Origin: Eledone cirrhosa
Lineage: Eukaryota
Assembly: GCA_964016885.1 (NCBI GenBank)
Contig: OZ024743.1
Location: forward strand, 286,750,001 to 286,814,000
Direction: 5' to 3'
DNA length: 64,000 bases
Of this stretch, positions 21,265 through 52,231 are shown one piece after another (position 1 is the stretch's first letter; every line of letters begins with the position of its first letter). A model generated the notes under the pieces. It ran no database searches. It had not been told where the DNA came from and worked only from the letters and a program-made list of their open reading frames with translations. Made by a program: the position numbers and the translations under genes.

Positions 21265-22294
21265 CAGGAGAACATGATATGAAGGCTAAAAAACACTTGT
21301 GGATAGTGCAGTTTTAAATCAACATATGAAAAGTGGTTTTAGATTGATGTGTGATATTGGGAAAAATATTTTATTTATAGAGGGGGGGGGGGGGGGGGTG
21401 GAAAGGATGAAAAAGGGGAGGAGATGAGAGGGAGAGATGGGTGATAGAGAGAAAGAGATAGTTTTTATAACTGAGATGACATAGAGAGGTTGAAAACCGT
21501 TGGAAGATAATGTATAAATTAAAAGAATTTGAAAATTAACGAAGGGAGGATATGTGCGAGGAAAAAATATTTTATTTAGGGAGGGGGGGGGGGGGGGAGA
21601 GGATGAAAAAAGGGGGAGGAGATGAGAGTGAAGGTGGAGAGGGAGAGATGGGTGATAGAGAGAAAGAGATAGTTTTTATAACTGAGAAAAAGATATATTG
21701 TTTTACATAGAGAGGTTGAGAACCGTTGGAAGATAATGTATAAATTAAAGGAATTTGAAAATTAACGAAGGGAATTTATGTATGAAGATAGAGAGAAAAA
21801 ATAATAATTGTGGATGAATATTCTAACGTCAAAAAAAGTGTATGTTGATAAGTATTGTGGCAATTTCAAAATTAACGAAGAGAAAAATTATTAAGGTTTG
21901 TGTGTAGAAGGATTTGAGAAAAATAATGTGAAGTTAAAGTTTGTATATTGAAGGAATTGATAATATATGCGAATAAAGAGTTAATATGTATTAAGAATGA
22001 GTTCGTTGATGGGGAGAAAAAAATAATAAATTAAGGATGAAATTGAGATTAAAAAGTTTTATGATAGAGAGAAAAAATAATAATGATTGCGGATGAATAT
22101 TCTAACGTCAAAAAAACAAATGTATATGTTATGAAGGATTTTACAAGGTGAAGATAGAAAGAGGGTAATGAGTAAACAAGTATTATAGAGTGTATAATGC
22201 CCTTTAAAGTAAGGTAGGAAGATGGGTATATTTTAAAGAGGTGTATGTATATGTGCCTTTGAGAAAAGATTCTAAATTGATAAAGAATTGAATA

Positions 22295-24073
22295 TTAACT
22301 GTATACTTTGTGAAAAGTCCTATGGAATTTATGCAGGCAGATAGAAAAAAAATCTGTACGTCTATTTATTATAGAATCTGGGTTAGAGATAATGGTAAAT
22401 TTTTCATTTAGGCAGAGATTACAGATTTTAGATAGAGAGCTGTTCAAGTATGAGGATGCAGAAGAAACCTTCTTCCAAAAGATGGTATATTTAATGTTTT
22501 TGTCTTTCAAGGACCATATGAGTTCTGAGAGAGCCGTGTTGGTTCTTTTAAGTTTGTATTTGAAAGATGAATGATGATTATAGAGACGAGCTTTAAAAGA
22601 GGTGGAAGTGGAGCCAAAATAGGTGAAGGAATTGGTGCTAGTTATAATTTTACACTCATAAATTAAGTTTTTATCGAGACAATGGTTGTTGAGAGGACAT
22701 TTATTTTTATTTTTAATGCGGCAGTTGCAATTAGAGAGATTATTAATGAGTGACCTAGTGTTATCTATAGAAGGAATTGGATTGGAGAAGTTGTTTGCGA
22801 TAGGAATAATAGGAATAATAGTTTCTTGATTTAGAGTTGGATTATGAACATTTAGCGAAGTTGTGTTTGACGTTGTATTTGGGTTTACAGAAGTTAGCCT
22901 AGGGTTTACAATGACGTCGGAAGTACTATTACTGTTATTATGAAATTCAATGTTGGAAGGAAGAGATTTAGTATTTAGTATTTTATTGTTGTGTTTAGAG
23001 ATGATGTTAGAAATATTGGAGGATGTAGAATAAGAAAATTTGATGGTGTGTTTGTTAAATATTTTACTATAGATATGAGAGGGAGGGAAGCATTTATTTA
23101 AGGCACTAAAAAATAATTTAGGAATATTGTTATTAATAGAGATGGAGAAAGGAGCATTATACCAGATTATGTTTTTGTATCTAGGTCTTTTATTAAAATT
23201 ATTGGAATGATCATGATTAATTATTCTACTGTAAGTTTTTCTAGAATTTGTTTCTTTACTATATTTGATTTTATCTGGATAGCCGGCTTTAGAAAGTGCG
23301 TTATTATAGTAATTGGCGTTAGCATCAAAGATGTTTTTATTAGAAGATATGTTAGATATTCTTTTTCCAATATTACTAACTATAGCATTCTTGATATTGG
23401 TAGGATGGTTAGATTTAAAGTTAACATAATTTAGGTTCTCATTGTTTTTATGGTAAGGGTAATATAGGCAAGTGTCAAGATTAAGAGATACATCCAAGAA
23501 ATTAGCTAGTTTGATACTATTATCAAATTCAATTTTTAGGTTATGTTGGTTAAAGAGATTACGTATATTGTTCTTAATAATATTAAGGTTAACTATATTG
23601 CAATTTAGGATAGTAAAGAGTCCATCGTCACGATAAATTCCACCGCGAAGTTGAGGAATTTTCCGACTCAAAGAGTTCAAAATGAAGATACCAATTAAAT
23701 CAGTCAATTGGGATGAATCGGATGCTCCCATTGTGATGTCGAAGTTGTTAGAGGTATCGGCTCTGGTCCAATATTCGTTGTTGAACTCTAGGATGGTTTT
23801 ACGTGCGGTGAGGATGATGTGAAGTTCATCTGTGGTGATGTCAGAATATTTAAGTGCGAAAGATAGAGCATTATTGAGAAGTGAAGGCGAAATGGAGGAA
23901 TAGTAGCTGGCAATATCAAATTGAATAAATTTTAGTTTGTTTTTATTATCCAATTTGTTGAACCAGCCAATCACTTCAGAAGTACCAAACCATAAATTTA
24001 GGTTCAAAGAAGAGCAATTAGAACTAACCTGTGGGATAATTCTATCCAAGATGGCTTTACTAACAACCCCCAG
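22295..24073 (-). CDS. Penelope-like reverse transcriptase (5'-truncated) plus Cys-rich linker and GIY-YIG endonuclease, uninterrupted frame
   Basis: FIQFDIASYY, MGASDS and IYRDDG RT motifs, FLDVSL, CNCR..CPLNNHCL, and LIYECK..TYFGST..FKARLYNH (GIY-YIG). The first ~29 codons of the called ORF come from the inverted arm. Confidence 0.9.
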   Translation of the reverse strand: MGVVSKAILDRIIPQVSSNCSSLNLNLWFGTSEVIGWFNKLDNKNKLKFIQFDIASYYSSISPSLLNNALSFALKYSDITTDELHIILTARKTILEFNNEYWTRADTSNNFDITMGASDSSQLTDLIGIFILNSLSRKIPQLRGGIYRDDGLFTILNCNIVNLNIIKNNIRNLFNQHNLKIEFDNSIKLANFLDVSLNLDTCLYYPYHKNNENLNYVNFKSNHPTNIKNAIVSNIGKRISNISSNKNIFDANANYYNNALSKAGYPDKIKYSKETNSRKTYSRIINHDHSNNFNKRPRYKNIIWYNAPFSISINNNIPKLFFSALNKCFPPSHIYSKIFNKHTIKFSYSTSSNISNIISKHNNKILNTKSLPSNIEFHNNSNSTSDVIVNPRLTSVNPNTTSNTTSLNVHNPTLNQETIIPIIPIANNFSNPIPSIDNTRSLINNLSNCNCRIKNKNKCPLNNHCLDKNLIYECKIITSTNSFTYFGSTSTSFKARLYNHHSSFKYKLKRTNTALSELIWSLKDKNIKYTIFWKKVSSASSYLNSSLSKICNLCLNEKFTIISNPDSIINRRTDFFSICLHKFHRTFHKVYS

Positions 24074-25462
24074 TATGAATGTAAAATTATAACTAGCACC
24101 AATTCCTTCACCTATTTTGGCTCCACTTCCACCTCTTTTAAAGCTCGTCTCTATAATCATCATTCATCTTTCAAATACAAACTTAAAAGAACCAACACGG
24201 CTCTCTCAGAACTCATATGGTCCTTGAAAGACAAAAACATTAAATATACCATCTTTTGGAAGAAGGTTTCTTCTGCATCCTCATACTTGAACAGCTCTCT
24301 ATCTAAAATCTGTAATCTCTGCCTAAATGAAAAATTTACCATTATCTCTAACCCAGATTCTATAATAAATAGACGTACAGATTTTTTTTCTATCTGCCTG
24401 CATAAATTCCATAGGACTTTTCACAAAGTATACAGTTAATATTCAATTCTTTATCAATTTAGAATCTTTTCTCAAAGGCACATATACATACACCTCTTTA
24501 AAATATACCCATCTTCCTACCTTACTTTAAAGGGCATTATACACTCTATAATACTTGTTTACTCATTACCCTCTTTCTATCTTCACCTTGTAAAATCCTT
24601 CATAACATATACATTTGTTTTTTTGACGTTAGAATATTCATCCGCAATCATTATTATTTTTTCTCTCTATCATAAAACTTTTTAATCTCAATTTCATCCT
24701 TAATTTATTATTTTTTTCTCCCCATCAACGAACTCATTCTTAATACATATTAACTCTTTATTCGCATATATTATCAATTCCTTCAATATACAAACTTTAA
24801 CTTCACATTATTTTTCTCAAATCCTTCTACACACAAACCTTAATAATTTTTCTCTTCGTTAATTTTGAAATTGCCACAATACTTATCAACATACACTTTT
24901 TTTGACGTTAGAATATTCATCCACAATTATTATTTTTTCTCTCTATCTTCATACATAAATTCCCTTCGTTAATTTTCAAATTCCTTTAATTTATACATTA
25001 TCTTCCAACGGTTCTCAACCTCTCTATGTAAAACAATATATCTTTTTCTCAGTTATAAAAACTATCTCTTTCTCTCTATCACCCATCTCTCCCTCTCCAC
25101 CTTCACTCTCATCTCCTCCCCCTCTTTTCATCCCCCCCCTCCCTAAATAAAATATTTTTTCCTCGCACATATCCTCCCTTCGTTAATTTTCAAATTCTTT
25201 TAATTTATACATTATCTTCCAACGGTTTTCAACCTCTCTATGTAAAACAATATATCTCCTCTCAGTTATAAAAACTATCTCTTTCTCTCTATCACCCATC
25301 TCTCCCTCTCATCTCCTCCCCTTTTTCATCCTTTCCACCCCCCCCTCTATAAATAAAATATTTTTCCCAATATCACACATCAATCTAAAACCACTTTTCA
25401 TATGTTGATTTAAAACTGCACTATCCACAAGTGTTTTTTAGCCTTCATATCATGTTCTCCTG

Positions 25463-25529
25463 TTTTATCTGATGAAAACACAAATATTATTGCATGATGA
25501 TGTTTGTTTTTGAAATGCGCATAATAAAA
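25463..25529 (+). ncRNA. Minimal type-I hammerhead ribozyme in the inverted Penelope arm
   Basis: TTTTAT CTGATGA [stem II ACAAATATTAT/ATGATGTTTGT] GAAA TGCGCA (palindromic stem III) TA ATAAAA. Predicted cleavage is after 25523. Confidence 0.82.
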
Positions 25530-25561
25530 TACATGGAACTCCTTTAACCATCTTTTGATCT

Positions 25562-25595
<34 letters not shown>

Positions 25596-27904: not shown

Positions 27905-29275
27905 GTGGCTTCTCATTGAATTAATACACTTAGAGTTGTCTTCCTTACTTGCTGATGAAAATATTAGCTATCAACTAATATCATTATCAAATGCTTTTTA
28001 CTGCATGCATAAATATACTTTTGCTTTATAATGTTTAAGCATTGAAAATATATTCATGTATACAACTGTCTAATAATTGCATTTGTTAGCTTGGGACTAA
28101 AATGAGAATATTTTCCCTCTTTTCCTCACTCATAATTTAAAGGAAAGAATCTGAATAATTACATACTTCACTCCTCAATGCGTTTGAACTAATGAAACTT
28201 TACCAAGAACCAGCCAATAAACTAACTGTTGCTGATGCAGATCATCATAAGTTTCCTCGAATTCCAAATTTTATCTTGTCTAATTGCACTATATAACATT
28301 AATTTTTTAGCAAATATTAGTAAATTTTAGGATGCTCTTTATGAATATGAAATCCATTTTGCTTCATCATGCCTTCATTCTGATCTATAAGATATACCAC
28401 ATATACAGAAAAAGTGTCTAATCTTGTGGACATTGTATGCAATCTATTAATGTACTAAACTACAATTTATCACAGTTAAAATAACAATATACACTTACAA
28501 AAAAAACTTAGCACAAAAAAAGTTACAGCATTGATTTCACTGTCAAGATCAGTAGCATGGAGTTCAAGTGTGAAGCCAGCAAAAGTCAGCCATTATGTGA
28601 GGATTGGCTCACCCTTGGTACCTTGTTTCAACAGTAATGATCACTTGATGAAATCTTTCACCATGCTCATCACTGATCCTACCCAAGTCCAAAGGAAAGA
28701 AATCCAAGTGATTCTTTTAAAAAGTGAATTTTCAAGGACACCCCGTGCATTGAAGGAATCCAAAAGGTCAGCTATGATTGCCTTGTAATTCAGGCTTCAG
28801 TTCTTTTCTGGAAAGTTTCCAACTGTCTTTAACACATCATCATAAAGTCATCGCTCAACTTCATTCAATGAAGCTCTGAACATCTGATTCTTCATTAATT
28901 TGCAAGTATCTGTTCCAACGAACACGCCTTCTTTAATCTTTGCTTTACTTAATTGAGGAAAGATGTCTTTCAGCACCTTGATTGATTGCCATACAAGATC
29001 CAGTGACTTCACAACATTTTTGAAGATTCCAAATTTAATATATAATGGTGGTAACACAGTTACCTCAAGTGAAACTAGTGATACATATTGAATGTATTTA
29101 TTCCCAGGTCTCCATTCATGACATGTTGGCCAATCCTGCCAACTGTAGTGCTCATTTCAAGACCAGCTATCCCACAGGCACAGGAAGAAGCAAAACTTTG
29201 CGTAGCCCTTTTGCATTCCAGTTAAAAAAACCTATGATATTCAATTCACCTCCAGCTTTCCACTTTAAATCATAA

Positions 29276-32200
29276 TCTATATTAATAAAGCTGATGGCCG
29301 TATGTATGTAACAAACTTTTCGCCAAACAGCTGAACCAAACAGCACCAAAGTTGCACCATAGATGTAACTTTTTCCAAGAAAGTGAGGGTATTTTTGTCT
29401 AATAAATTTTGTTAAAAGATTAAAGATATTATTTAAATATTCACTTCTTTAAAATTTTCAAATGTCAAAGCTTCCGGTTATACGACATTCCTCTCTCTTT
29501 CTAAGTCTGTCTTTTTAGATAGATACATAGCTATAACGTCGCGCCCTTATAATATGTCTGTGTATGTCTGGCTGTCTGCATCTGTACATTGACTTCACTA
29601 TCTATGTGTGTGTATATATATGTATATATAGTGTGTGTATATATATATATAGTGTGTATATATATATATATAGTGTTAGTATCATAAATAAGAGACAGTT
29701 TAACTTGTACATTTTATTACAGCATTCCTTTATACATATATATACGTATATATATATACATAAACATGTTATTTACAGTTGTATAAAAAAGAAGTATAAG
29801 CGAAGCTAGGTACGTCAGCTATATAGATATATATCTGGATGCCGTAGAACACACCAATGGTAGCCGGGCACCAGTCGGATGGGCCAGCTAGTACTATATA
29901 TTTTCAACAGTAATACTGTACTATACAATATATTTTCAACAGTAATACTGTACTATACTATACTATACTATATATTTCCAACAGTAATACTATACAATAT
30001 GTTTTCAACAGTAATACTATACTATATATTTCCAACAGTAATACTATACAATATGTTTTCAACAGTAATACGATACTATATATTTTCAACAGTAATACTA
30101 TACAATATATTTTCAACAGTAATACTATACTATATATTTTCAACAGTAATACTATACTATATGTTTTCAACAGTAATACTATACTATATATTTCCAACAG
30201 TAATACTATACAATATGTTTTCAACAGTAATACTATACTATATATTTTCAACAGTAATACTGTACTATATATTTTCAACAGTAATACTGTACTATACTAT
30301 ACTATACTATATATTTCCAACAGTAATACTATACAATATGTTTTCAACAGTAATACTATACAATATGTTTTCAACAGTAATACTATACTATATATTTTCA
30401 ACAGTAATACTATACTATATATTTTCAACAGTAATACTATACTATATATTTTCAACAGTAATACTATACTATACAATATATTTTCAACAGTAATACTATA
30501 CTATATATTTTCAACAGTAATACTATACTATATATTTTCAACAGTAATACTATACTATACAATATATTTTCAACAGTAATATTATACTATATATTTCCAA
30601 CAGTAATACTATACTATATATTTTCAACAGTAATACTATACTATACAATATATTTTCAACAGTAATACTGTACTATACAATATATTTTCAACAGTAATAC
30701 TATACTATATATTTTCAACAGTAATACTATACTATATATTTTCAACAGTAATACTATACTATATATTTTCAACAGTAATACTATACTATATATTTTCAAC
30801 AGTAATACTATACTATATATTTTCAACAGTAATACTATACTATATGTTTTCAACAGTAATACTATACTATATATTTTCAAAAGTAATACTATACTATATA
30901 TTTTCAACAGTAATACTATACTATACAATATATTTTCAACAGTAATACTATACAATATGTTTTCAACAGTAATACTATACAATATGTTTTCAACAGTAAT
31001 ACTATACAATATGTTTTCAACAGTAATACTATACTATATATTTTCAACAGTAATACTATACTATATATTTTCAACAGTAATACTATACTATATATTTCCA
31101 ACAGTAATACTGTACAATATATTTCCAACAGTAATACTATACTATATATTTCCAACAGTAATACTATACTATATATTTTCAACAGTAATACTGTACTATA
31201 TATTTTCAACAGTAATACTATACTATATATTTCCAACAGTAATACTATACTATATATTTCCAACAGTAATACTATACTATATATTTTCAACAGTCATACT
31301 ATACTATATATTTTCAACAGTAATACTATACTATATATTTTCAACAGTCATACTATACTATATATTTTCAACAGTAATACTATACTATATATTTCCAACA
31401 GTAATACTATACTATATATTTTCAACAGTAATACTGTACTATATATTTTCAACAGTAATACTGTACTATACTATATATTTTCAACAGTAATACTGTACTA
31501 TACAATATATTTTCAACAGTAATACTATACTATATATTTTCAACAGTAATACTGTACTATACAATATATTTTTAACAGTAATACTGTACTATACAATATA
31601 TTTTCAAAAGTAATACTATACTATATATTTTCAACAGTAATACTATACTATATATTTTCAACAGTAATACTATACTATATATTTTCAACAGTAATACTAT
31701 ACTATATATTTTCAACAGTAATACTATACTATATATTTTCAACAGTAATACTATACTATATGTTTTCAACAGTAATACTATACTATATATTTTCAAAAGT
31801 AATACTATACTATATGTTTTCAACAGTAATACTATACAATATTTTTTCAACAGTAATACTATACAATATGTTTTCAACAGTAATACTATACTATATATTT
31901 CCAACAGTAATACTATACTATATATTTTCAACAGTAATACTATACTATATATTTCCAACAGTAATACTGTACAATATATTTCCAACAGTAATACTATACT
32001 ATATATTTTCAACAGTAATACTATACTATATATTTCCAACAGTAATACTATACTATATATTTTCAACAGTAATACTATACTATATATTTTCAACAGTCAT
32101 ACTATACTATATATTTTCAACAGTAATACTATACTATATATTTCCAACAGTAATACTATACTATATATTTTCAACAGTAATACTGTACTATATATTTTCA

Positions 32201-35200
32201 ACAGTAATACTGTACTATACTATATATTTTCAACAGTAATACTGTACTATACAATATATTTTCAACAGTAATACTATACTATATATTTTCAACAGTAATA
32301 CTGTACTATACAATATATTTTCAACAGTAATACTGTACTATACAATATATTTTCAACAGTAATACTATACTATATATTTTCAACAGTAATACTATACTAT
32401 ATATTTTCAACAGTAATACTATACTATATATTTTCAACAGTAATACTATACTATACAATATATTTTCAACAGTAATACTATACTATATATTTTCAACAGT
32501 AATACTATACTATATATTTCAACAGTAATACTATACTATATGTTTTCAACAGTAATACTATACTATATATTTTCAAAAGTAATACTATACTATATGTTTT
32601 CAACAGTAATACTATACAATATGTTTTCAACAGTAATACTATACAATATGATTTCAACAGTAATACTATACTATATATTTCCAACAGTAATACTATACTA
32701 TATATTTTCAACAGTAATACTATACTATATATTTTCAACAGTAATACTATACTATATATTTCCAACAGTAATACTGTACAATATATTTCCAACAGTAATA
32801 CTATACTATATATTTTCAACAGTAATACTATACTATATATTTTCAACAGTAATACTGTACTATATATTTTCAACAGTAATACTATACTATATATTTCCAA
32901 CAGTAATACTATACTATATATTTCCAACAGTAATACTATACTATATATTTTCAACAGTCATACTATACTATATATTTTCAACAGTAATACTATACTATAT
33001 ATTTTCAACAGTCATACTATACTATATATTTTCAACAGTAATACTATACTATATATTTTCAACAGTCATACTATACTATATATTTTCAACAGTAATACTA
33101 TACTATATATTTCCAACAGTAATACTATACTATATATTTTCAACAGTAATACTGTACTATATATTTTCAACAGTAATACTGTACTATACTATATATTTTC
33201 AACAGTAATACTGTACTATACAATATATTTTCAACAGTAATACTATACTATATATTTTCAACAGTAATACTGTACTATACAATATATTTTTAACAGTAAT
33301 ACTGTACTATACAATATATTTTCAACAGTAATACTATACTATATATTTTCAACATTAATACTATACTATATATTTTCAACAGTAATACTATACTATATAT
33401 TTTCAACAGTAATACTATACTATATATTTTCAACAGTAATACTATACTATATATTTTCAACAGTAATACTATAGTATATGTTTTCAACAGTAATACTATA
33501 CTATATATTTTCAAAAGTAATACTATACTATATGTTTTCAACAGTAATACTATACAATATGTTTTCAACAGTAATACTATACAATATGTTTTCAACAGTA
33601 ATACTATACTATATATTTCCAACAGTAATACTATACTATATATTTTCAACAGTAATACTATACTATATATTTCCAACAGTAATACTGTACAATATATTTC
33701 CAACAGTAATACTATACTATATATTTCCAACAGTAATACTATACTATATATTTTCAACAGTAATACTGTACTATATATTTTCAACAGTAATACTATACTA
33801 TATATTTCCAACAGTAATACTATACTATATATTTCCAACAGTAATACTATACTATATATTTTCAACAGTAATACTATACTATATATTTTCAACAGTCATA
33901 CTATACTATATATTTTCAACAGTAATACTATACTATATATTTCCAACAGTAATACTATACTATATATTTTCAACAGTAATACTGTACTATATATTTTCAA
34001 CAGTAATACTGTACTATACTATATATTTTCAACAGTAATACTGTACTATACAATATATTTTCAACAGTAATACTATACTATATATTTTCAACAGTAATAC
34101 TGTACTATACAATATATTTTCAACAGTAATACTGTACTATACAATATATTTTCAACAGTAATACTATACTATATATTTTCAACAGTAATACTATACTATA
34201 TATTTTCAACAGTAATACTATACTATATATTTTCAACAGTAATACTATACTATACAATATATTTTCAACAGTAATACTATACTATATATTTTCAACAGTA
34301 ATACTATACTATATATTTCCAACAGTAATACTATACTATATGTTTTCAACAGTAATACTATACTATATATTTTCAAAAGTAATACTATACTATATGTTTT
34401 CAACAGTAATACTATACAATATGTTTTCAACAGTAATACTATACAATATGTTTTCAACAGTAATACTATACTATATATTTCCAACAGTAATACTATACTA
34501 TATATTTTCAACAGTAATACTATACTATATATTTTCAACAGTAATACTATACTATATATTTCCAACAGTAATACTGTACAATATATTTCCAACAGTAATA
34601 CTATACTATATATTTCCAACAGTAATACTATACTATATATTTTCAACAGTAATACTGTACTATATATTTTCAACAGTAATACTATACTATATATTTCCAA
34701 CAGTAATACTATACTATATATTTCCAACAGTAATACTATACTATATATTTTCAACAGTCATACTATACTATATATTTTCAACAGTAATACTATACTATAT
34801 ATTTTCAACAGTCATACTATACTATATATTTTCAACAGTAATACTATACTATATATTTCCAACAGTAATACTATACTATATATTTTCAACAGTAATACTA
34901 TACTATACAATATATTTTCAACAGTAATACTATACTATATGTTTTCAACAGTAATACTATACTATATATTTTCAACAGTAATACTATACTATATATTTTC
35001 AACAGTCATACTATACTATATATTTTCAACAGTAATACTATACTATATATTTCCAACAGTAATACTATACTATATATTTTCAACAGTAATACTGTACTAT
35101 ATATTTTCAACAGTAATACTGTACTATACTATATATTTTCAACAGTAATACTGTACTATACAATATATTTTCAACAGTAATACTATACTATATATTTTCA

Positions 35201-38200
35201 ACAGTAATACTGTACTATACAATATATTTTCAACAGTAATACTGTACTATACAATATATTTTCAACAGTAATACTATACTATATATTTTCAACAGTAATA
35301 CTATACTATATATTTTCAACAGTAATACTATACTATATATTTTCAACAGTAATACTATACTATATATTTTCAACAGTAATACTATACTATATATTTTCAA
35401 CAGTTATACTATACTATATATTTTCAACAGTAATACTATACTATATGTTTTCAACAGTAATACTATACTATATATTTTCAAAAGTAATACTATACTATAT
35501 GTTTTCAACAGTAATACTATACAATATGTTTTCAACAGTAATACTATACAATATGTTTTCAACAGTAATACTATACTATATATTTCCAACAGTAATACTA
35601 TACTATATATTTTCAACAGTAATACTATACTATATATTTTCAACAGTAATACTATACTATATATTTCCAACAGTAATACTGTACAATATATTTCCAACAG
35701 TAATACTATACTATATATTTCCAACAGTAATACTATACTATATATTTTCAACAGTAATACTGTACTATATATTTTCAACAGTAATACTATACTATATATT
35801 TCCAACAGTAATACTATACTATATATTTCCAACAGTAATACTATACTATATATTTTCAACAGTCATACTATACTATATATTTTCAACAGTAATACTATAC
35901 TATATATTTTCAATAGTCATACTATACTATATATTTCCAACAGTAATACTATACTATATATTTCCAACAGTAATACTATACTATATATTTTCAACAGTAA
36001 TACTGTACTATATATTTTCAACAGTAATACTGTACTATACTATATATTTTCAACAGTAATACTGTACTATGCAATATATTTTCAACAGTAATACTATACT
36101 ATATATTTTCAACAGTAATACTGTACTATACAATATATTTTCAACAGTAATACTGTACTATACAATATATTTTCAACAGTAATACTATACTATATATTTT
36201 CAACAGTAATACTATACTATATATTTTCAACAGTAATACTATACTATATATTTTCAACAGTAATACTATACTATATATTTTCAACAGTAATACTATACTA
36301 TATATTTTCAACAGTAATACTATACTATATATTTTCAACAGTAATACTATACTATACAATATATTTTCAACAGTAATACTATACTATATATTTTCAACAG
36401 TAATACTATACTATATATTTCCAACAGTAATACTATACTATATGTTTTCAACAGTAATACTATACAATATGTTTTCAACAGTAATACTATACTATATATT
36501 TCCAACAGTAATACTATACTATATGTTTTCAACAGTAATACTATACAATATGTTTTCAACAGTAATACTATACAATATGTTTTCAACAGTAATACTATAC
36601 TATATATTTCCAACAGTAATACTATACTATATATTTCCAACAGTAATACTGTACAATATATTTCCAACAGTAATACTATACTATATATTTCCAACAGTAA
36701 TACTATACTATATATTTTCAACAGTAATACTGTACTATATATTTTCAACAGTAATACTATACTATATATTTCCAACAGTAATACTATACTATATATTTCC
36801 AACAGTAATACTATACTATATATTTTCAACAGTCATACTATACTATATATTTTCAACAGTAATACTATACTATATATTTTCAACAGTCATACTATACTAT
36901 ATATTTTCAACAGTAATACTATACTATATATTTCCAACAGTAATACTATACTATATATTTTCAACAGTAATACTATACTATACAATATATTTTCAACAGT
37001 AATACTATACTATATATTTTCAACAGTAATACTATACTATATATTTCCAACGGTAATACTATACTATATGTTTTCAACAGTAATACTATACAATATGTTT
37101 TCAACAGTAATACTATACTATATATTTCCAACAGTAATACTATACTATATGTTTTCAACAGTAATACTATACTATATATTTTCAAAAGTAATACTATACT
37201 ATATGTTTTCAACAGTAATACTATACAATATGTTTTCAACAGTAATACTATACAATATGTTTTCAACAGTAATACTATACTATATATTTCCAACAGTAAT
37301 ACTATACTATATATTTCCAACAGTAATACTATACTATATATTTTCAACAGTAATACTGTACTATATATTTTCAACAGTAATACTATACTATATATTTCCA
37401 ACAGTAATACTATACTATATATTTCCAACAGTAATACTATACTATATATTTTCAACAGTCATACTATACTATATATTTTCAACAGTAATACTATACTATA
37501 TATTTTCAACAGTAATACTGTACTATACAATATATTTTCAACAGTAATACTATACTATATATTTTCAACAGTAATACTGTACTATACAATATATTTTCAA
37601 CAGTAATACTGTACTATACAATATATTTTCAACAGTAATACTATACTATATATTTTCAACAGTAATACTATACTATATATTTTCAACAGTAATACTATAC
37701 TATATATTTTCAACAGTAATACTATACTATACAATATATTTTCAACAGTAATACTATACTATATATTTTCAACAGTAATACTATACTATATATTTCCAAC
37801 AGTAATACTATACTATATGTTTTCAACAGTAATACTATACTATATATTTTCAAAAGTAATACTATACTATATGTTTTCAACAGTAATACTATACAATATG
37901 TTTTCAACAGTAATACTATACAATATGTTTTCAACAGTAATACTATACTATATATTTCCAACAGTAATACTATACTATATATTTTCAACAGTAATACTAT
38001 ACTATATATTTTCAACAGTAATACTATACTATATATTTCCAACAGTAATACTGTACAATATATTTCCAACAGTAATACTATACTATATATTTCCAACAGT
38101 AATACTATACTATATATTTTCAACAGTAATACTGTACTATATATTTTCAACAGTAATACTATACTATATATTTCCAACAGTAATACTATACTATATATTT

Positions 38201-41200
38201 CCAACAGTAATACTATACTATATATTTTCAACAGTCATACTATACTATATATTTTCAACAGTAATACTATACTATATAGTTTCAACAGTCATACTATACT
38301 ATATATTTTCAACAGTAATACTATACTATATATTTCCAACAGTAATACTATACTATATATTTTCAACAGTAATACTATACTATACAATATATTTTCAACA
38401 GTAATACTATACTATATGTTTTCAACAGTAATACTATACTATATATTTTCAACAGTAATACTATACTATATATTTTCAACAGTCATACTATACTATATAT
38501 TTTCAACAGTAATACTATACTATATATTTCCAACAGTAATACTATACTATATATTTTCAACAGTAATACTGTACTATATATTTTCAACAGTAATACTGTA
38601 CTATACTATATATTTTCAACAGTAATACTGTATTTATACAATATATTTTCAACAGTAATACTATACTATATATTTTCAACAGTAATACTGTACTATACAA
38701 TATATTTTCAACAGTAATACTGTACTATACAATATATTTTCAACAGTAATACTATACTATATATTTTCAACAGTAATACTATACTATATATTTTCAACAG
38801 TAATACTATACTATATATTTTCAACAGTAATACTATACTATATATTTTCAACAGTAATACTATACTATATATTTTCAACAGTTATACTATACTATATATT
38901 TTCAACAGTAATACTATACTATATGTTTTCAACAGTAATACTATACTATATATTTTCAAAAGTAAAACTATACTATATGTTTTCAACAGTAATACTATAC
39001 AATATGTTTTCAACAGTAATACTATACAATATGTTTTCAACAGTAATACTATACTATATATTTCCAACAGTAATACTATACTATATATTTTCAACAGTAA
39101 TACTATACTATATATTTCAACAGTAATACTATACTATATATTTCCAACAGTAATACTGTACAATATATTTCCAACAGTAATACTATACTATATATTTCCA
39201 ACAGTAATACTATACTATATATTTTCAACAGTAATACTGTACTATATATTTTCAACAGTAATACTATACTATATATTTCCAACAGTAATACTATACTATA
39301 TATTTCCAACAGTAATACTATACTATATATTTTCAACAGTCATACTATACTATATATTTTCAACAGTAATACTATACTATATATTTTCAATAGTCATACT
39401 ATACTATATATTTCCAACAGTAATACTATACTATATATTTCCAACAGTAATACTATACTATATATTTTCAACAGTAATACTGTACTATATATTTTCAACA
39501 GTAATACTGTACTATACTATATATTTTCAACAGTAATACTGTACTATGCAATATATTTTCAACAGTAATACTATACTATATATTTTCAACAGTAATACTG
39601 TACTATACAATATATTTTCAACAGTAATACTGTACTATACAATATATTTTCAACAGTAATACTATACTATATATTTTCAACAGTAATACTATACTATATA
39701 TTTTCAACAGTAATACTATACTATATATTTTCAACAGTAATACTATACTATATATTTTCAACAGTAATACTATACTATATATTTTCAACAGTAATACTAT
39801 ACTATATATTTTCAACAGTAATACTATACTATACAATATATTTTCAACAGTAATACTATACTATATATTTTCAACAGTAATACTATACTATATATTTCCA
39901 ACAGTAATACTATACTATATGTTTTCAACAGTAATACTATACAATATGTTTTCAACAGTAATACTATACTATATATTTCCAACAGTAATACTATACTATA
40001 TGTTTTCAACAGTAATACTATACAATATGTTTTCAACCATAATACTATACAATATGTTTTCAACAGTAATACTATACTATATATTTCCAACAGTAATACT
40101 ATACTATATATTTCCAACAGTAATACTGTACAATATATTTCCAACAGTAATACTATACTATATATTTCCAACAGTAATACTATACTATATATTTTCAACA
40201 GTAATACTGTACTATATATTTTCAACAGTAATACTATACTATATATTTCCAACAGTAATACTATACTATATATTTCCAACAGTAATACTATACTATATAT
40301 TTTCAACAGTCATACTATACTATATATTTTCAACAGTAATACTATACTATATATTTTCAACAGTCATACTATACTATATATTTTCAACAGTAATACTATA
40401 CTATATATTTCCAACAGTAATACTATACTATATATTTTCAACAGTAATACTATACTATACAATATATTTTCAACAGTAATACTATACTATATATTTTCAA
40501 CAGTAATACTATACTATATATTTCCAACGGTAATACTATACTATATGTTTTCAACAGTAATACTATACAATATGTTTTCAACAGTAATACTATACTATAT
40601 ATTTCCAACAGTAATACTATACTATATGTTTTCAACAGTAATACTATACTATATATTTTCAAAAGTAATACTATACTATATGTTTTCAACAGTAATACTA
40701 TACAATATGTTTTCAACAGTAATACTATACAATATGTTTTCAACAGTAATACTATACTATATATTTCCAACAGTAATACTATACTATATATTTCCAACAG
40801 TAATACTATACTATATATTTTCAACAGTAATACTGTACTATATATTTTCAACAGTAATACTATACTATATATTTCCAACAGTAATACTATACTATATATT
40901 TCCAACAGTAATACTATACTATATATTTTCAACAGTCATACTATACTATATATTTTCAACAGTAATACTATACTATATATTTTCAACAGTCATACTATAC
41001 TATATATTTTCAACAGTAATACTATACTATATATTTCCAACAGTAATACTATACTATATATTTTCAACAGTAATACTATACTATATATTTTCAACAGTAA
41101 TACTATACTATACTATATGTTTTCAACAGTAATACTATACAATATATTTTCAACAGTAATATTATACTATATATTTTCAACAGTAATACTATACAATATA

Positions 41201-44200
41201 TTTTCAACAGTAATACTATACTATATATTTTCAACAGTAATACTGTACTATACAATATATTTTCAACAGTAATACTATACTATATATTTTCAACAGTAAT
41301 ACTATACTATATATTTTCAACAGTAATACTATACTATATATTTCCAACAGTAATACTATACTATATGTTTTCAACAGTAATACTGTACTATACAATATAT
41401 TTTCAACAGTAATACTATATGTTTTCAACAGTAATACTATACTATACAATATATTTTCAACAGTAATACTGTACTATACAATATATTTTCAACAGTAATA
41501 CTATACTATATATTTTCAACAGTCATACTATACTATATATTTTCAATAGTAATACTATACAATATATTTTCAACAGTAATACTATACAATATATTTTCAA
41601 CAGTAATACTATACAATATATTTCCAACAGTAATACTATATATTTCCAACAGTAATACTATACTATATATTTTCAACAGTAATTCTATACTATATATTTT
41701 CAACAGTAATACTATACAATATATTTTCAACAGTAATACTGTACTATACAATATATTTTCAACAGTAATACTATACTATATATTTTCAACAGTAATACTG
41801 TACTATACAATATATTTTCAACAGTAATACTGTACTATACAATATATTTTCAACAGTAATACTATACTATATATTTTCAACAGTAATACTATACTATATA
41901 TTTCCAACAGTAATACTATACTATATGTTTTCAACAGTAATACTGTACTATACAATATATTTTCAACAGTAATACTATATGTTTTCAACAGTAATACTGT
42001 ACTATACAATATATTTTCAACAGTAAAACTATACTATATGTTTTCAACAGTAATACTATACTATACAATATATTTTCAACAGTAATACTGTACTATACAA
42101 TATATTTTCAACAGTAATACTATACTATATATTTTCAACAGTAATACTATACTATATATTTTCAACAGTAATACTATACAATATATTTTCAACAGTAATA
42201 CTATACAATATATTTTCAACAGTAATACTATACAATATATTTCCAACAGTAATACTATACTATATATTTCCAACAGTAATACTATACTATATATTTTCAA
42301 CAGTAATTCTATACTATATATTTTCAACAGTAATACTATACAATATATTTTCAACAGTAATACTGTACTATACAATATATTTTCAACAGTAATACTATAC
42401 TATATATTTTCAACAGTAATACTGTACTATACAATATATTTTCAACAGTAATACTGTACTATACAATATATTTTCAACAGTAATACTATACTATATATTT
42501 TTAACAGTAATACTATACTATATATTTCCAACAGTAATACTATACTATATGTTTTCAACAGTAATACTGTACTATACAATATATTTTCAACAGTAATACT
42601 ATATGCTTTCAACAGTAATACTGTACTATACAATATATTTTCAACAGTAAAACTATACTATATGTTTTCAACAGTAATACTATACTATACAATATATTTT
42701 CAACAGTAATACTGTACTATACAATATATTTTCAACAGTAATACTATACTATATATTTTCAACAGTAATACTATACTATATATTTTCAACAGTAATACTA
42801 TACAATATATTTTCAACAGTAATACTATACAATATATTTTCAACAGTAATACTATACAATATATTTCCAACAGTAATACTATACTATATATTTCCAACAG
42901 TAATACTATACTATATATTTTCAACAGTAATTCTATACTATATATTTTCAACAGTGATACTATACAATATATTTTCAACAGTAATACTGTACTATACAAT
43001 ATATTTTCAACAGTAATACTATACTATATATTTTCAACAGTAATACTGTACTATACAATATATTTTCAACAGTAATACTGTACTATACAATATATTTTCA
43101 ACAGTAATACTATACTATATATTTTCAACAGTAATACTATACTATATATTTCCAACAGTAATACTATACTATATGTTTTCAACAGTAATACTGTACTATA
43201 CAATATATTTTCAACAGTAATACTATATGTTTTCAACAGTAATACTGTACTATACAATATATTTTCAACAGTAAAACTATACTATATGTTTTCAACAGTA
43301 ATACTATACTATACAATATATTTTCAACAGTAATACTGTACTATACAATATATTTTCAACAGTAATACTATACTATATATTTTCAACAGTAATACTATAC
43401 TATATATTTTCAACAGTAATACTATACAATATATTTTCAACAGTAATACTATACAATATATTTTCAACAGTAATACTATACAATATATTTCCAACAGTAA
43501 TACTATACTATATATTTCCAACAGTAATACTATACTATATATTTTCAACAGTAATTCTATACTATATATTTTCAACAGTAATACTATACAATATATTTTC
43601 AACAGTAATACTATACTATATATTTTCAACAGTAATACTGTACTATACAATATATTTTCAACAGTAATACTATACAATATATTTTCAACAGTAATTCTAT
43701 ACTATATATTTTCAACAGTAATACTATACTATATGTTTTCAACAGTAATACTGTACTATATATTTTCAACAGTAATACTATACTATATATTTTCAAAAGT
43801 AATACTGTACTATATATTTTCAAAAGTAATACTGTACTATATATTTTCAAAAGTAATACTGTACTATATATTTTCAACAGTAATATTATACTATATATTT
43901 CCAACAGTAATACTATACTATATATTTTCAACAGTAATATTATACTATATATTTCCAACAGTAATACTATACTATATATTTTCAAAAGCAATACTATACT
44001 ATATATTTTCAACAGTAATACTGTACTATATATTTTCAACAGTAATATTATACTATATATTTCCAACAGTAATACTATACTATATATTTTCAAAAGTAAT
44101 ACTATACTATATATTTTCAACAGTAATACTGTACTATATATTTCCAACAGTAATACTATACTATATATTTTCAACAGTAATATTATACTATATATTTTCA

Positions 44201-44808
44201 ACAGTAATACTATACTATATATTTTCAACAGTAATACTATACTATACTATATATTTTCAAAAGTAATACTATACTATATATTTTCAAAAGTAATACTATA
44301 CTATATGTTTTCAACAGTAATATTATACTATATATTTTTAACAGTAATACTGTACTATATATTTTCAACAGTAATACTGTACTATATATTTTCAACAGTA
44401 ATATTATACTATATATTTTTAACAGTAATACTGTACTATATATTTTCAACAGTAATACTGTACTATATATTTCTAACAGTAATACTATACTATATATTTT
44501 CAAAAGTAATACTATACTATATATTTTCAACAGTAATACTGTACTATATATTTCCAACAGTACTACTATACTATATGTTTTCAACAGTATTACTATACTA
44601 TACTATATATTTTCAACAGTAATACTGTACTGTACTATATATTTTCAACAGTAATACTATATATACTATACTATATATTTTCAACAGTAATACTATACAA
44701 CACAGACGGATTATCGTCTGTTTATCCAAGCGAAACTAGGTACGTCAGCTATATAGATATATATCTGGATGCCGTAGAACACGCCAATGGTAGCCGGGCG
44801 CCAGCTAG
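29276..44808 (+). mobile_element. Composite non-autonomous Helitron-like insertion (15.5 kb) with two 3' termini
   Basis: Starts A|TCTATATTAATAAAG and ends CCAGCTAG|T with no TSD. Removing it restores the transposase frame (I-K-Y-Y-D-L-K-W). The ~80-bp 3' end is present twice (29798-29891 and 44728-44808). Confidence 0.85.
29892..44700. repeat. 27-bp satellite array (TACTATATATTTTCAACAGTAATACTA), roughly 540 monomers, with 22/32-bp variants and higher-order structure
   Basis: Directly visible. Monomer length varies by gain or loss of a TACTA/TACAA pentamer. Confidence 0.98.
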
Positions 44809-45576
44809 TACTTGATAAAAGAGAGTAACATCTTGATAGTGTTGTATGACTCTAGCCTTCCTCAAATAACCCACTGGAATAGCTGGGTACTCATTTGCAA
44901 CATGCAATAAACTGCTATCATTGAATAACTGCCAATCTGTCTCGACATCAGAAGAAATTCCCAGTACCATCATCAAACCAGTTATGTTCTAGCAACAAAC
45001 TAAACTCAGTTCATCATAAGTGTAAAAAAATTCAACAAATTTCTTCTCTTGGTGCCTGTACACTGTTTTTTTGGTTCCTTGAGCTAAGACACCAAATTCT
45101 CTGAACATTGTTCCAAAAGGTAATCATCATCTTTAGAAAGTCCCAACTTTTGAACAAAATGATCCAGTTGTTCTTGACTTAATTTAGGACAAGAATGAGG
45201 AATTTCAAAATATTTGTCATCCATTACCACTCTCTTATTAAGAGTGTTTCAAAAATAGACATGGCCTGATATCCATTATATCTACTTTCACAGCTCTCTC
45301 ATTAAAGGTTGTCAGAAAACGAACAATCAAAAGCATTCTTAAAAGACAAATAGGAACACTCAATTTACTGCATGCTATATTACATTTCTGTAAATTTGAT
45401 ACATAGTGGGGTATCTTGTAGATCAAAATCTAGATATGATGGAGCAGAATTGGTTTCATATTCAGAAAGAGCACCCTAAAATTAACTAAAATCACCCTAA
45501 TTATCTCTTGCTAAATAAACGTTTTTCATTTTGTCTTGCAGTGTTAGTATATGGATTGCATTATTGCATAAGCATT

Positions 45577-47039: not shown

Positions 47040-47860
47040 CATCATCATCATCATCACCGTTTTACGTCCGTTCTTCCACGCTAGCATGGGTTAGATGGGT
47101 TGTCCTGTTGTGGGCAGTGTCTGGTCGGCTGACCATACCTTGCTCATACAGGAACTGATTTGGCTTGATTTCTACAGCTGGATGCCTTTCCTAACACCAA
47201 CCTCATTTACAGTGAGTGCTGGGTGCTTTTTCGTGGTGCCTACACGTCCACTTTACAGTGTAGGCGGGGTGCTTTTTTGCCGTGGCACCTCCACGACCAC
47301 CTTGCAGTGGGAGGATGTGGGGGCATATTTTCTATATGCTTCAGCTTGTACCCATGGGAGGTCGGGTACTCTGTATTACTGCGTGACGCCAGAGGTCAGC
47401 TTTTATCACCTCATCCCAGGTCATCTTGGGTCTCCCCACTCCACGGCTTCCATCGACTTCTAGTGGTCTGCACCTTTTTATGCAGCTGTCATCCTTCATA
47501 TGCATCACATCTCCATACCAATGCATCCGCCTCTCCACACAGCATTTGATTCCTCTTATGCTCAGTCAGTCTCTCTCTCAATTCATTTATGCTTTGTCGT
47601 TCGTGTATATTACTATTACACATCCATCGGAGCATGCAGGCTTCGTTTCTCTCTAATCTATGTAAGTCTTCCACCTTCAGTGCCCAGGTCTCACTACTAT
47701 GTAACATTGCTGTTCTGCCTTTCATTTTGAGGGAGAAGCCTTTTGCAGCTAGCAGTGGTAGTAGTTCCCTGAACTTCTTCCATCCCGTTCTTACCCTAGT
47801 TATTGTACTTTCTGAACACCCACCTCCGCTGCTAATTCGGTCACCTAGGTAGCAGAAGCT
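47040..47860 (-). mobile_element. 5'-truncated RTE-clade LINE with internal deletions
   Basis: SFCYLGDRISSGGG..RTGWKKFRELLPLL..; 3' UTR nearly identical to 6880-7239; (GAT)n tail. Confidence 0.9.
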
Positions 47861-48134
47861 GTAGATACTGTAATGCTGTATTCGATTGTTTGAAGTCACT
47901 TGTTATAATTTAATTCAACAACACCACTATCTCTCTCTCTCTCTTCTATTTTCCTTCTCCCTTTTTCTCTATCTTTCTCTCTCAAAACTTGTTTTATTCC
48001 ATTTGTATTCCCATTTCAGGGGCAACTTCCTTTCAAAGTATTTTCCAATTATGTGCCATTCTGGCTGTATTAAATTACAGACAAGCACACAATCACAGAG
48101 TTTTAGCAGTATATGGATATATATGTATATATAT

Positions 48135-48235
48135 GTTAGAAAGAGTTAGGGCCCAATGGTTGAGCTCTTGCCATTTCAAGAGCTAGTTCCAGACTCTGGA
48201 ATTAGCTGTCAAAATGGCCCCGACGCTTTCTAATA
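48135..48235. repeat. Imperfect ~100-bp hairpin/foldback
   Basis: Outer arms TAGAAAGAGTTAGGGCC / GGCCCCGACGCTTTCTA and inner arms GCCATTTCAAGAGCTAGTTCCAGA / TCTGGAATTAGCTGTCAAAATGGC. Confidence 0.7.
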
Positions 48236-48325
48236 TAGTTACACTCAACTATCCCAAGTATCGAGTAATCTGCTGAATAATGGTTTTATTAGTTTAAAAA
48301 CTGGTAAAATCCTGATCTATCAACC

Positions 48326-48397
<72 letters not shown>

Positions 48398-48402
<5 letters not shown>

Positions 48403-48700
48403 ATATACTTTCCTTGTGCATATTAACAGCTGAGTAGCCCGATTAACCCACTCGATATGCAAATTGGGCTACTCAACCATTAATATGCATAAGGAAAGTA
48501 TATACTTTCGGACATTCAACTATCTGGCCGGAAGGTATACATTGCTGACGATAGCTAACAAGCTTGAAACTAGTACAGCATTCCTTTGTCAGTGTTGTAC
48601 AAAGGAGCAACGATGGTTGCTAGACATTACGGCTTAATACGGGATGTTTGTTTACAAACGCACCGAGCATTATAATAAATGTGGTGAATCCATACGTACA
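48398..48700 (+). mobile_element. Probable Penelope-like remnant: ~47-bp inverted repeat followed by a hammerhead motif, in (TA)n
   Basis: Inverted arms 48398-48447 / 48462-48508, hammerhead motif at 48542-48578, microsatellite flanks. Confidence 0.5.
48542..48578 (+). ncRNA. Minimal hammerhead ribozyme motif
   Basis: TTG CTGACGA T-AGC-TAACAA-GCT-T GAAA CTAG (palindromic stem III) TA CAG. Stem I is only about 3 bp. Confidence 0.55.
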
Positions 48701-48796
48701 TATATATATGTGTGCATGTATGTATATATACATACTACTGTACGTCTGTATACATATATGTATGTACGTATACATACTTATATATATACACATATA

Positions 48797-49380
48797 TCAT
48801 CATCATCATCATCATTCTATGTCCACTTTTCCCTGCTTGCAAGGGTGGGAAGGGTCTTATTAAGCACGAGATCTCTCCATTCATCACGGTCCTTTGTCAT
48901 CTCCTCCGCGAACTACAACGATCTGAGGTTTGCTCTCACTACCTCTGCCCATGTTTTTCGTGGTCTTCCTCGACTGTGTCTTCCTTCTACTGGGATTTCT
49001 TGGTCATCCTCTATGCACATCACATGTCCATACCAACGCAGTCTTCTCTCCAGCACACTACAGCCTATCCCTCTTATACACAGTTTCTCTCTCAACTCGT
49101 CTATGCTTGGTCATTAACGCACATTGGCATTGCACATCCAACGGAGCATGCTTTCTTCATTTCTCTCCAGCTGTCGCATATCTTCTACAGTTGCTGCCCA
49201 TGTCTCACTACCATGCAGCATCGCACATCTCACACAGGCATCATATAACCAGCCTTTCGTTCGTAGGGAGAAACCCTTCTTTGTCAACAGAGGAAGCAGC
49301 TCCCTAAACTTCTTCCAACCTGTCCTTATTCTGGAAACTATGGCCTCAGAGCACCCTCCTCCCTTACTAATCTGATCTGA
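48797..49380 (-). mobile_element. RTE subfamily B 3' fragment
   Basis: Reverse-complement homolog of 26297-26918, with a small internal deletion; (GAT)n tail. Confidence 0.9.
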
Positions 49381-49424
49381 TATATATATATCATATATAT
49401 ATATATGATCTGATATATATATAT

Positions 49425-52035
49425 AAAAGCCTTCCCTGGTGAGGAATGTACCTCCCAACATAACTTAGTTGTCAGTGACCTCATTGTCAAAACTAGACGA
49501 ACTTGGAAACAGAAGACAACCTGGAGAAGAAAGATCTAGAAGCTGAAAGACCCCACAGCCAGTAACAGATTTTAAAATATTTTACTCAACGCCTATGACA
49601 GTAAAGAAGAACAGATAGATACATTCAATGTAGAAGAGGACTGGGAATTCCTAAAAAATAATTTACTAAAAGACGAGATCTGGGGTTGGAGCAAGACCAC
49701 AGGGAGGAGGAAAGCGACTTGGTGGTGGAACAATAAGGTAGATGAGGCAGTTAAGGCCAAGAGACAGGCATGGAAAGAATGGAAGAATGGGGGAAGCAGG
49801 GTACATTACATAGAGACCAGGAGGGAAGCTAGGCGACAAGTATACTTAGCTAGAAGGGAAGCATGTTTTGCAACGTGAGGGACCAGAAACAAGAGGTGTT
49901 CAAGATTGTGAGGCAGTGTGTCAGAGAGAATTGTGATGTCATTGGAGAGAAGTGTATCCAGAATGATAAAGGTGAGCTTGCCCTCACAAGTACCGAGAGG
50001 AAAGATGCGTGGAAGAGCCATTATGAAAGATTACTAAAAGAGGAGAATGCATGGGAAAAAGAGACCCTACCCCAAGTGGACCCTATAGAGGGGCCAGCAG
50101 TACAAGTCAGCAGCAGCGTAGTAAGTAAGGCAATCAAAGATATGAAGACAGGTAAGGCAACCGGTCCATCGAGTATAGCTGCCGAAATGCTGAAGGCACC
50201 AGGGTCGGTAGGTCACACCATAACCACACGTATTGTTAACCAGGTAATACTAGAGGCTGTCATACCAAAAGATTGGTGCAGTAGCATCATTGTAAACTGC
50301 TACAAGGGTAAAGGTGATGCACTAAATAGAGGAAACTATAGAGGTATAAAGCTGATGGACCAGGTCATGAAAGTAACGGAAAGAGTTATAGCACAGTTGA
50401 TTAGGGACTGGGTAAAACTAGATGAGATGCAATTTGGGTTTGTGCCAGGAAAAGGCACCACTGATGCCCTCTTCCTTGTGAGGCAATTACAGGAAAAGTA
50501 CCTAGCTAAAAGTAAGCCGCTCTATCTGGCATTTGTCGATCTGGAAAAAGCTTCCGACAGAGTCCCCCGTGCTATAATCTGGTGGGCTCTTCGAAAACTA
50601 GGAGTAGATGAATGGCTTGTGAAAGCTGTAGAAACCATGTATAGAGGAGCAGTCAGCAAAGTTAGGATTAGCAATGACTATAGCGAGGAATTTATCATAC
50701 AGGTCGGTGTCCACCAGGGCTCTATTCTTAGCCCTCTCCTGTTCATTATAATTTTGCAGGCAATAACAGAGGAGTTTAAGACCAAATGCCCATGGAAACT
50801 CCTATATGCGGATGACCTCGCACTTATAGCTGAATCTATGGTAGAACTAGAGAGGAAATTCCAAACATGGAAGCAGGGACTAGAAAGAAAGGGTCTCAAA
50901 GTCAACTTGACAAAGACTAAGGTCCTCGTAAGTAGACGAGAAAACAGAATCCAGATCCCCTCAGGGAAATGGCCTTGCTCAGTTTGTAGGAAAGGTGTAG
51001 GAACTCCATCCTCTGCCCCAAAGGCAAACAATGGGTACACAAGAGATGCAGTGGGATCTCAGAAAGCTTAACTATGAATGTAGGCTTCATATGTAGCAGC
51101 TGCACTGGGACAGCAAGCATCAAACAGCCACAGGAAATAAGCACCACCAAACTCTGGGAGGGCTCTGTAGAAACAGTAGACAGCTTCTGCTATCTAGGTG
51201 ACCGAATTAGCAGCGGAGGTGGGTGTTCGGAAAGTACAGTAACTAGGGTAAGAACAGGATGGAAGAAGTTCAGGGAGCTACTGCCACTGCTAGCTACAAA
51301 AGGCTTTTCCCTCAAAATGAAAAGCAGACTGTATGATGTGTGTATACGGACAGCAATGTTACATGGTAGTGAGACCTGGGTGCTGTCTGTGGAAGACTTG
51401 CATAGATTAGAAAGAAACGAAGCCTGCATTCTCCGATGGATGTGTAATAGTAATATATGCAAACGGCAAAGCATAAATGAATTGAGAGAGAGACTGAGCA
51501 TAAGAGGAATCAAATGCTGTGTGCAGGAGAGGAGGTTGTGCTGGTATAGACATGTGATGTGTATGAAGGATGACAGGTGCATAAAAAGGTGCAGAGCACT
51601 AGAAGTCGATGGAAGCCACAGAGTGGGGAGACCCAAGAAGACCTGGAATGAGGTGATAGAAGCTGCCTTGCCCAATTGCACCTCTCAAAGGTGATGACAC
51701 ATGACCATGACCTCTGGTGTCATGCAGTAATACGGAAGACCCGACTTCCCACAGGTACAAGCTGAAGCTGAAGCATATAGGCAACATACCCACCCCATCC
51801 CACTGTAAAGTGGACGTGGAGGTGCCACGGAAAAAAAGCACCCAGCACTCATTGTAAATGAGGTTGGTGTTAGGAAGGGCATCCAGCTGTAGAAATCATG
51901 CCAGAATCAGTTCCCATATGAGCAAGACAAGTTCAGCCGACCAGACACTGCCCACAACAGGACAACCCGTCTAACCCATGCTAGCATGGAAGAATGGACG
52001 TAAAACGATGATGATGATGATGATGATGATGATGA
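49425..52035 (+). mobile_element. Long 5'-truncated RTE-clade LINE (end of APE domain, RT, PHD-like finger, 3' UTR), frameshifted
   Basis: KAFPGEECTSQHNLVVSDL (APE C-terminus), TWWWN, NYRGIKL, QFGFVPGKGTTDA, GVHQGSILSPLLF, LLYADDL; frameshift near 51002; (GAT)n tail. Confidence 0.95.
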
Positions 52036-52231
52036 TATAGCTAACTAAACACACACTTGCTTTCTCTGCCAACATTTTTTTTTCTATTTTTTCCTCTACT
52101 TCCTCTATTTTTCTTTCTATTTCTTCTTTTATCGTTCATCCCCTTTTCTGATGAATGACTAATGTTCACAACATTAAGACTCTTTTCCTACTATATCAAG
52201 TGTCTTGTTTCCCTGTGTTATTTATCCATTT

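Follow-up and report, generated by a model that had tools for sequence, protein, structure and literature searches.

The stretch analysed here, called the window, is a 64,000-nucleotide segment of the Eledone cirrhosa genome (contig OZ024743.1), numbered from its first letter. Positions 29276..44808 are occupied by a non-autonomous Helitron that carries a 14.8-kb array of a 27-bp repeat native to its own family and interrupts a dead transposase at an A|T site. On balance, we consider it probable that the 3' part of this element was duplicated in place and that the array grew to its present length afterwards. Genome-wide counts refer to the assembly searched, which comprises 3.0 Gb. The features of the locus are the following.

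28290..29275, minus strand: host fossil DDE transposase, C-terminal part, with stops and frameshifts (blastn to paralogs, tblastn to homologues P0001/P0002)
29276..29799, plus strand: Helitron 5' body with TC start, conserved 5' 306 bp, (TA/TG)n tract and 122-bp middle segment
29798..29799, plus strand: AA microhomology at the internal deletion, where the middle segment is joined straight to the terminus (comparison with L005 and L007)
29798..29891, plus strand: terminus copy 1, 94 bp, with full-length GC-rich hairpin region, CTAG end and private G at 29826
29892..44699, plus strand: 27-bp minisatellite array, ~533 units, with higher-order blocks and less homogenized edges
35157..37513, plus strand: internal array block recurring at 38635-40990, with 3 mismatches in 2356 bp
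44700..44727, plus strand: 28-bp hairpin segment, placed after the array in ordinary family copies
44728..44808, plus strand: terminus copy 2, 81 bp, with 13-bp deletion in the hairpin region, CTAG end and private G at 44756 (contig support)
44809..44818, plus strand: target 3' flank, starting with TACT (as does the array at 29892) and with TA at +8/+9
44809..45546, minus strand: host fossil DDE transposase, N-terminal part (blastn to paralogs, tblastn to homologues P0001/P0002)

Anatomy of the Helitron unit

The 5' TC at 29276 follows an A (CATAA|TCTATATT at 29275/29276), the last CTAG at 44805-44808 is followed by TACTTG, and a target-site duplication is absent. The inner CTAG occupies 29888-29891 and the array begins with the next base, 29892. 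All these coordinates, including the two terminus copies and the start of the array right after the first CTAG, had been given by a first-pass annotation of the sequence and were confirmed, and its assignment to the Helitrons is upheld, as is the clean insertion. A 3' end of the CTRR type is present as CTAG at both termini and in the family copies, and insertion at A|T without target duplication is documented by 15/24 paralogs with gap 0 and by nested copies that restore the 27-bp unit. The targets are A|T and not the T-rich (TT) sites of Helentron/HINE/DINE-1 elements. Imperfect stems are predicted for the terminus hairpins (-3.8 to -5.6 kcal/mol, calculated without shuffle control), and 13 bp are missing from copy 2.

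Tandem Repeats Finder reported a period of 27 with 532.9 copies (29892-44695), and a unit census yielded 532 units of 51 types, 442 of them 27 bp and 79 of them 32 bp long. The 28-bp hairpin segment at 44700-44727 separates the array from the second terminus and is absent ahead of the first. Between the middle segment and the first terminus the window copy is 418-563 bp shorter than full-length copies, and this deletion joint, which bears a 2-bp microhomology, was found in none of the others among 40 scored genome places.

The 27-bp repeat is a native part of a dispersed Helitron family

A first look at the assembly gave 2712 candidates for the family 5' end, the best other copy being 94% alike, and 468 for the 3' end. 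Complete short copies of ~1.2 kb (e.g. L005 and L007) are ordered TC, body, (TA)n, middle segment, captured piece resembling a short interspersed element (SINE), short 27-mer array, 28-bp hairpin segment, terminus and CTAG|T, and the TC is preceded by A in most of 20 family loci. Directly upstream of the terminus, the 27-mer array was present in 47/48 distinct family termini, the window locus included, with a median of 14.5 units; one terminus query included a few array bases, which introduces a small bias into this count. Exact array-to-hairpin joints occur 147 times in the genome. The 27-mer is a standing native part of a dispersed non-autonomous Helitron family, in at least 147 copies. This agrees with the earlier suggestion that other arrays are tied to the same terminus and contradicts the claim that a satellite is being born at this locus. 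An array acting as a separate mini-element that starts from TACT was considered and rejected, as no stand-alone copy with unique DNA ahead occurred among 48 array starts and nested cases restore the 27-bp unit on both sides.

Furthermore, L215, whose 5' end is that of the family and whose last bases are identical, contains fragments of RepHel (E 8e-29) that belong to a 1718-aa open reading frame with PF14214 and PF05970, and RepHel was also detected in L199 and L223; short RepHel fragments were missed by Pfam and recognised by tblastn. RepHel genes are abundant, the best 150 of 3704 candidates having been scored, and an intact RepHel partner with family ends was found in none of 10 stretches examined. 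RepHel matches of similar score recur every 70-210 kb on one strand at C20:3.5-5.2 Mb, with similar spacing at C27:13.1-15.5 Mb, C19:35-40 Mb and C16:0.5-0.8 Mb, which suggests giant tandem or segmental units each with one Helitron. The starts of the window termini (29798-29822 and 44728-44752) resemble the 3' end of RepHel-coding elements and are followed by (TA)n; judged from this likeness, the family terminus may consist of an older end together with the target of that end, the extension being due to an earlier bypass.

The insertion site has empty counterparts

Joining the two flanks yields IKYYDLKW in the host frame, where unbroken homologues read LIKYNDFEWRAGGDLK without extra residues. 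The host, at ~28290-45546 on the minus strand, shows 75-84% identity to its paralogs. In 24 host copies taken from 40 other matched genome places, left and right flanks adjoin with gap 0 in 15, 3-75 bp deletions lie near the site in 7, one copy has an insertion away from the junction and one is without the right flank. Extra sequence at the insertion junction was present in none of these 24 copies. The proposed clean insertion with a definable empty site is upheld by the 15 collinear paralogs and the unbroken homologues, and the check proposed for it, a search for extra junction sequence in intact members of the transposase family, revealed none in homologues or paralogs. What had been called a transposase gene is DDE transposase sequence, as stated, and a fossil with many stops and frameshifts rather than a working gene.

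From its motifs, we tentatively take the host to be Chapaev3-like. By eye, full homologues have an N-terminal Cys/His zinc finger and a Transib/RAG1-type DDE core, and among the named Atlas clusters, RAG1 fragments come closest, at 0.90. For the host transposase, the Pfam search gave no match, the PDB search no relevant match and the first homologue search no usable result. Chapaev3-like transposases are treated in PMC4411706.

The two termini are sister copies

In an alignment of the two termini, which spans 98 columns, the aligned part shows 2 mismatches and the second terminus has the 13-bp deletion. Compared to the family majority, copy 1 has four private sites and copy 2 has one. A 17-mer with a private G in the terminal (TA)n occurs only twice in 3 Gb, once in each window terminus, and the G was found in 0/61 other termini; the two window termini are therefore sister copies, as had been claimed before. 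Since the duplication, 4 CpG-type changes have arisen in copy 1, while copy 2 has acquired a single change and the 13-bp hairpin deletion, which also occurs in L056, several such ends having been seen elsewhere. TACT follows both window CTAGs, whereas it follows 0/67 Helitron ends outside arrays and, counted by eye, 1/100 listed ends. The termini were likely duplicated in place via TACT microhomology with the host flank. A head-to-tail rolling-circle dimer was rejected as the source, since it would give CTAG|TC and the locus has CTAG|TACT.

Most of the array appears younger than the insertion

Within the 5' 306 bp, the window copy deviates from the column majority of 18 copies at 9 sites, and the other copies deviate at 6-17. 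Compared to ~3% for the element, the repeated array block differs by 0.13%, and a 624-bp period spans 1356 bp of the array with 6 mismatches. Exact repeats of at least 250 bp cover 70% of the array, both edges lying outside them, and the longest measures 951 bp versus 157-230 in 5 unit shuffles. Singleton units make up 4% of the window array versus 40% of pooled short arrays, and none of the abundant window unit variants occurs among 488 units pooled from short arrays elsewhere. As internal divergence is ~20x below that of the element, most of the array length is far younger than the insertion or has been homogenized since. To judge from these divergences, the 14.8 kb likely arose after insertion. 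The first-pass annotation had the 14.8 kb arrive in a single rolling-circle event, which the ~20x lower divergence of the internal duplications does not support; of its wider proposal that the satellite or its seed came with the Helitron, arrival of the seed inside the element stands and that of the full length lacks support.

An array of 84.6 kb or ~3,100 units of the same 27-mer lies at C7:32,420,626-32,505,206 (L226, L227, L231-L237), flanked 5' by a normal family body and 3' by unrelated DNA, where no terminus was found within the 260 bp read downstream. Other long 27-mer arrays measure 3 kb, in L109 with ordinary ends, and 5.5 kb. Long arrays need no doubled end, as the C7 array and L109 demonstrate.

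The 27-bp array is a repeated Helitron target

GCTAG directly ahead of the array occurs 36 times in the genome, 32 times at the phase of the window and 4 times five bases earlier, and at none of the other three A|T sites of the 27-bp unit. The Helitron ends upstream of these joints are of at least four types. For 33 of the 35 joints other than that of the window, upstream stretches of ~9 kb were read. Array followed by a TC start was found upstream in 18 clean and 3 less clean cases of the 35, the two sides restoring the unit; members of the family with the same 5' end are among these nested copies (L213, L215 and L219). Paired by adjacency, the four early-phase ends go with AA|TC starts. About 12 of the 35 lack array in the 8-9 kb upstream and are possible bypass composites. 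The 27-bp array is a repeated Helitron target. Two other Helitron families have at least 8,256 exact ends, of which, by eye, ~16 fall in 27-mer array, roughly 15-30x its guessed genome share, this factor being rough.

At C2:134.70, 134.75 and 134.80 Mb (L010, L011 and L172), one nested Helitron-in-array locus is present in three copies ~50 kb apart, likely a tandem segmental repeat. In L122 (C1:249.63 Mb) the terminus enters the array at a CTA overlap and its final G is gone, a possible recombination-type terminus-array joint.

History of the locus and competing explanations

The probable history begins with the observed family anatomy, TC-body-array-hairpin-terminus-CTAG, and the clean A|T insertion. 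The copy would have arrived ~1.2-1.5 kb long with a short array. In a step for which we see about as much chance as against it, a template switch past CTAG-TACT, in the host flank, back to an array TACT would have duplicated array, hairpin and terminus, and a deletion at the 2-bp microhomology would have removed the first array; duplication and deletion were possibly one repair event. The array, whose block ages are observed, would then have been enlarged by repeated unequal exchange or slippage of 0.6-3.5-kb blocks. A template switch from host flank to array would account at once for the base that the termini share, for the phase and the flank, and for the lack of a donor; this is a weighing of probabilities and not a proof.

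Several observations weigh against this history. Helitron insertion into the array also produces a CTAG|TACT joint and has commonly done so in the genome, array and TC start lying upstream in 21/35 other joints, so that the joint alone needs no duplication. A second terminal duplication with shared private bases was not found among 7 internal-end loci inspected. Homogenization of an already long array would likewise reduce internal divergence, and the 3% age assumes that the copy does not derive from a diverged source absent from the assembly. Moreover, the left junction and the array length are without read confirmation, no record among the matches listed bridging the left junction.

The nested copies raise the possibility, rather unlikely in our judgement, that the element's own circle, a sister or a copy converted later inserted into the array of the element at the preferred A|TACT, that one deletion subsequently took out the left array together with most of the nested copy, and that growth of the array in place came last. 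At exactly the window phase, the array harbours Helitrons with at least four types of 3' end, the clean and less clean nested cases have array at both ends with phases matching on both sides, and copies with the same 5' end are among them. However, the nested copy must have carried a base found nowhere else, and Helraiser showed no local hopping (PMC4778049). Self-insertion explains the phase but leaves the TACT of the host flank, present at ~1% of sites, as a coincidence. In the duplication history, this TACT is the point of the switch.

We regard as improbable that the composite formed elsewhere and moved in by one rolling-circle event past the first CTAG, with the array short or long, which is the 3'-end bypass invoked by the earlier reading. 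Bypass has been demonstrated for Helraiser and bat Helitrons (in parts of PMC4778049), both outer junctions are clean, and the joints that lack array upstream may be such composites. Nevertheless, no donor or sister with the private G or the deletion joint was found in this one assembly, although transposition is replicative. A damaged inner hairpin would be expected, but it is the outer terminus that has the 13-bp deletion and the inner hairpin that is intact, and arrival at the full 14.8 kb conflicts with the 0.13% block divergence.

A mis-assembly of the array length or of the internal joint, which the unbridged left junction would permit, appears very improbable, because the outer flanks are collinear in the paralogs, the termini differ at several sites, the unit variants are locus-specific and ordered, and the right junction occurs in short-read contigs. 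At this junction, a contig without mismatch spans 44781-45000 in three runs from a single sample, which may be the one that was assembled; it extends 28 letters into the element, short of the tool threshold of 31. Neither junction was reached by the restriction-site-associated DNA sequencing runs X4 and X5. At the right junction, contigs had a depth of 2.8-5.9, about half that of some left-flank contigs (7-12), so that heterozygosity of the locus or its flank in that sample is possible.

A target-site rule for Helitron insertion

By eye, T at +1 past CTAG was present in 97/100 listed ends and TA starting at +8 or +9 in 62/69 listed ends outside (TA)n. TA at +8/+9 was found in 35/35 examined loci outside arrays and (TA)n, the background in the window being 20% among 9,784 A|T sites and 33% among the 1,627 that are A/T-rich. 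The motif is present at both used array sites and absent from the three unused ones, so that the rule accounts for which array sites are targeted. The window host site has it, whereas 0/16 paralogous sites do. With a position weight matrix built on 31 sites, the phase in use came out first by a weak margin; the TA rule was sharper. The motif also occurs in the element 5' ends of 12/14 start types, one common type lacking it, which suggests that Helitron targets mimic the element's own 5' end. Extending this, transposases might choose such 5'-end mimics (A|T sites carrying TA at +8 or +9), and the 27-mer might be a Helitron-borne landing pad for several families, building composites, dispersing the repeat and seeding 15-85 kb arrays; we put this forward tentatively, as possible and short of probable.

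Grabundzija et al. described an A/T preference strongest 3' of the site (parts of PMC4778049). A position-specific Helitron target motif was not found stated in the literature searched, with figures, supplements and subscription papers outside the search, which is weak evidence of novelty. The accessible parts of PMC13286980, PMC5876387 and PMC13282606 contain no statement on a target motif or a 27-bp repeat.

Other features of the window

At 21153-25574, inverted arms of 1070 bp (21591-22660 and 24074-25143) are 100% complementary, with shorter arms in addition, and a reverse-transcriptase-like frame lies between them on the minus strand; we presume this to be a young Penelope-like element. 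Region 47489-54178 contains several reverse-transcriptase frames of up to 405 aa resembling those of long interspersed elements (LINEs).

Relation to known systems and significance

Being a dispersed tandem array inside conserved element ends that is occasionally long, the 27-mer has the properties of a Helitron-borne satellite, a known kind of which the family described here is new. The internal repeats of DINE-TR1 of Drosophila have reportedly expanded into satellite-sized arrays. Helitron satellites in cephalopods were not found in the same literature search, again weak evidence of novelty. Helitron/Helentron elements with central arrays that sometimes become satellites are described, in parts of the respective texts, from oyster (PMC7492417, PMC8268682), and such elements also from Drosophila and mites (PMC4067079) and Xenopus (PMC12001565); they are reviewed as common in part of PMC12628747, and end bypass is discussed in part of PMC6544945.

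According to the same parts of PMC7492417 and PMC8268682, Cg_HINE and CgiSat01/Cg170 of Crassostrea gigas are likewise non-autonomous rolling-circle elements that combine conserved ends with a microsatellite and a tandem array in the centre, their arrays are mostly short with few long ones, and two-sided and one-sided forms and empty paralogous sites occur. Unlike these, the present family has TC...CTAG ends and A|T targets (TT in the oyster), a unit of 27 bp (140-180 bp in the oyster) and 533 units between ends or ~3,100 on C7 (at most 89 element-associated monomers in the oyster), and its arrays are themselves targets of other Helitrons. In Drosophila DINE-1/HINE, internal repeats of rolling-circle elements also expand to satellite-sized arrays, but these elements are Helentrons with subterminal inverted repeats and T-rich targets (parts of PMC4067079). 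Xenopus Heli2Xen / Helitron-N2_XT are non-autonomous Helitrons that similarly consist largely of minisatellite, but have a 166-bp unit, 2-7 repeats and Helitron2 type (parts of PMC12001565). As here, Helibat/Helraiser gained new ends by insertion beside other Helitrons and by bypass, with an AT target and an A/T-rich preference strongest 3'; unlike there, a satellite is involved here, and a position-specific TA at +8/+9 is not in the accessible text of PMC4778049.

Altogether, arrays of this repeat in one genome form a datable series that runs from a single unit to ~3,100, and the empty site of the present locus is defined. Carriage of a long array and growth in place are thereby directly testable against each other, and the data favour growth in place. 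If general, the target rule is a testable statement on Helitron integration, which is the least understood step of their cycle, and it would account for the piling of Helitrons into one another and into TA-rich repeats.

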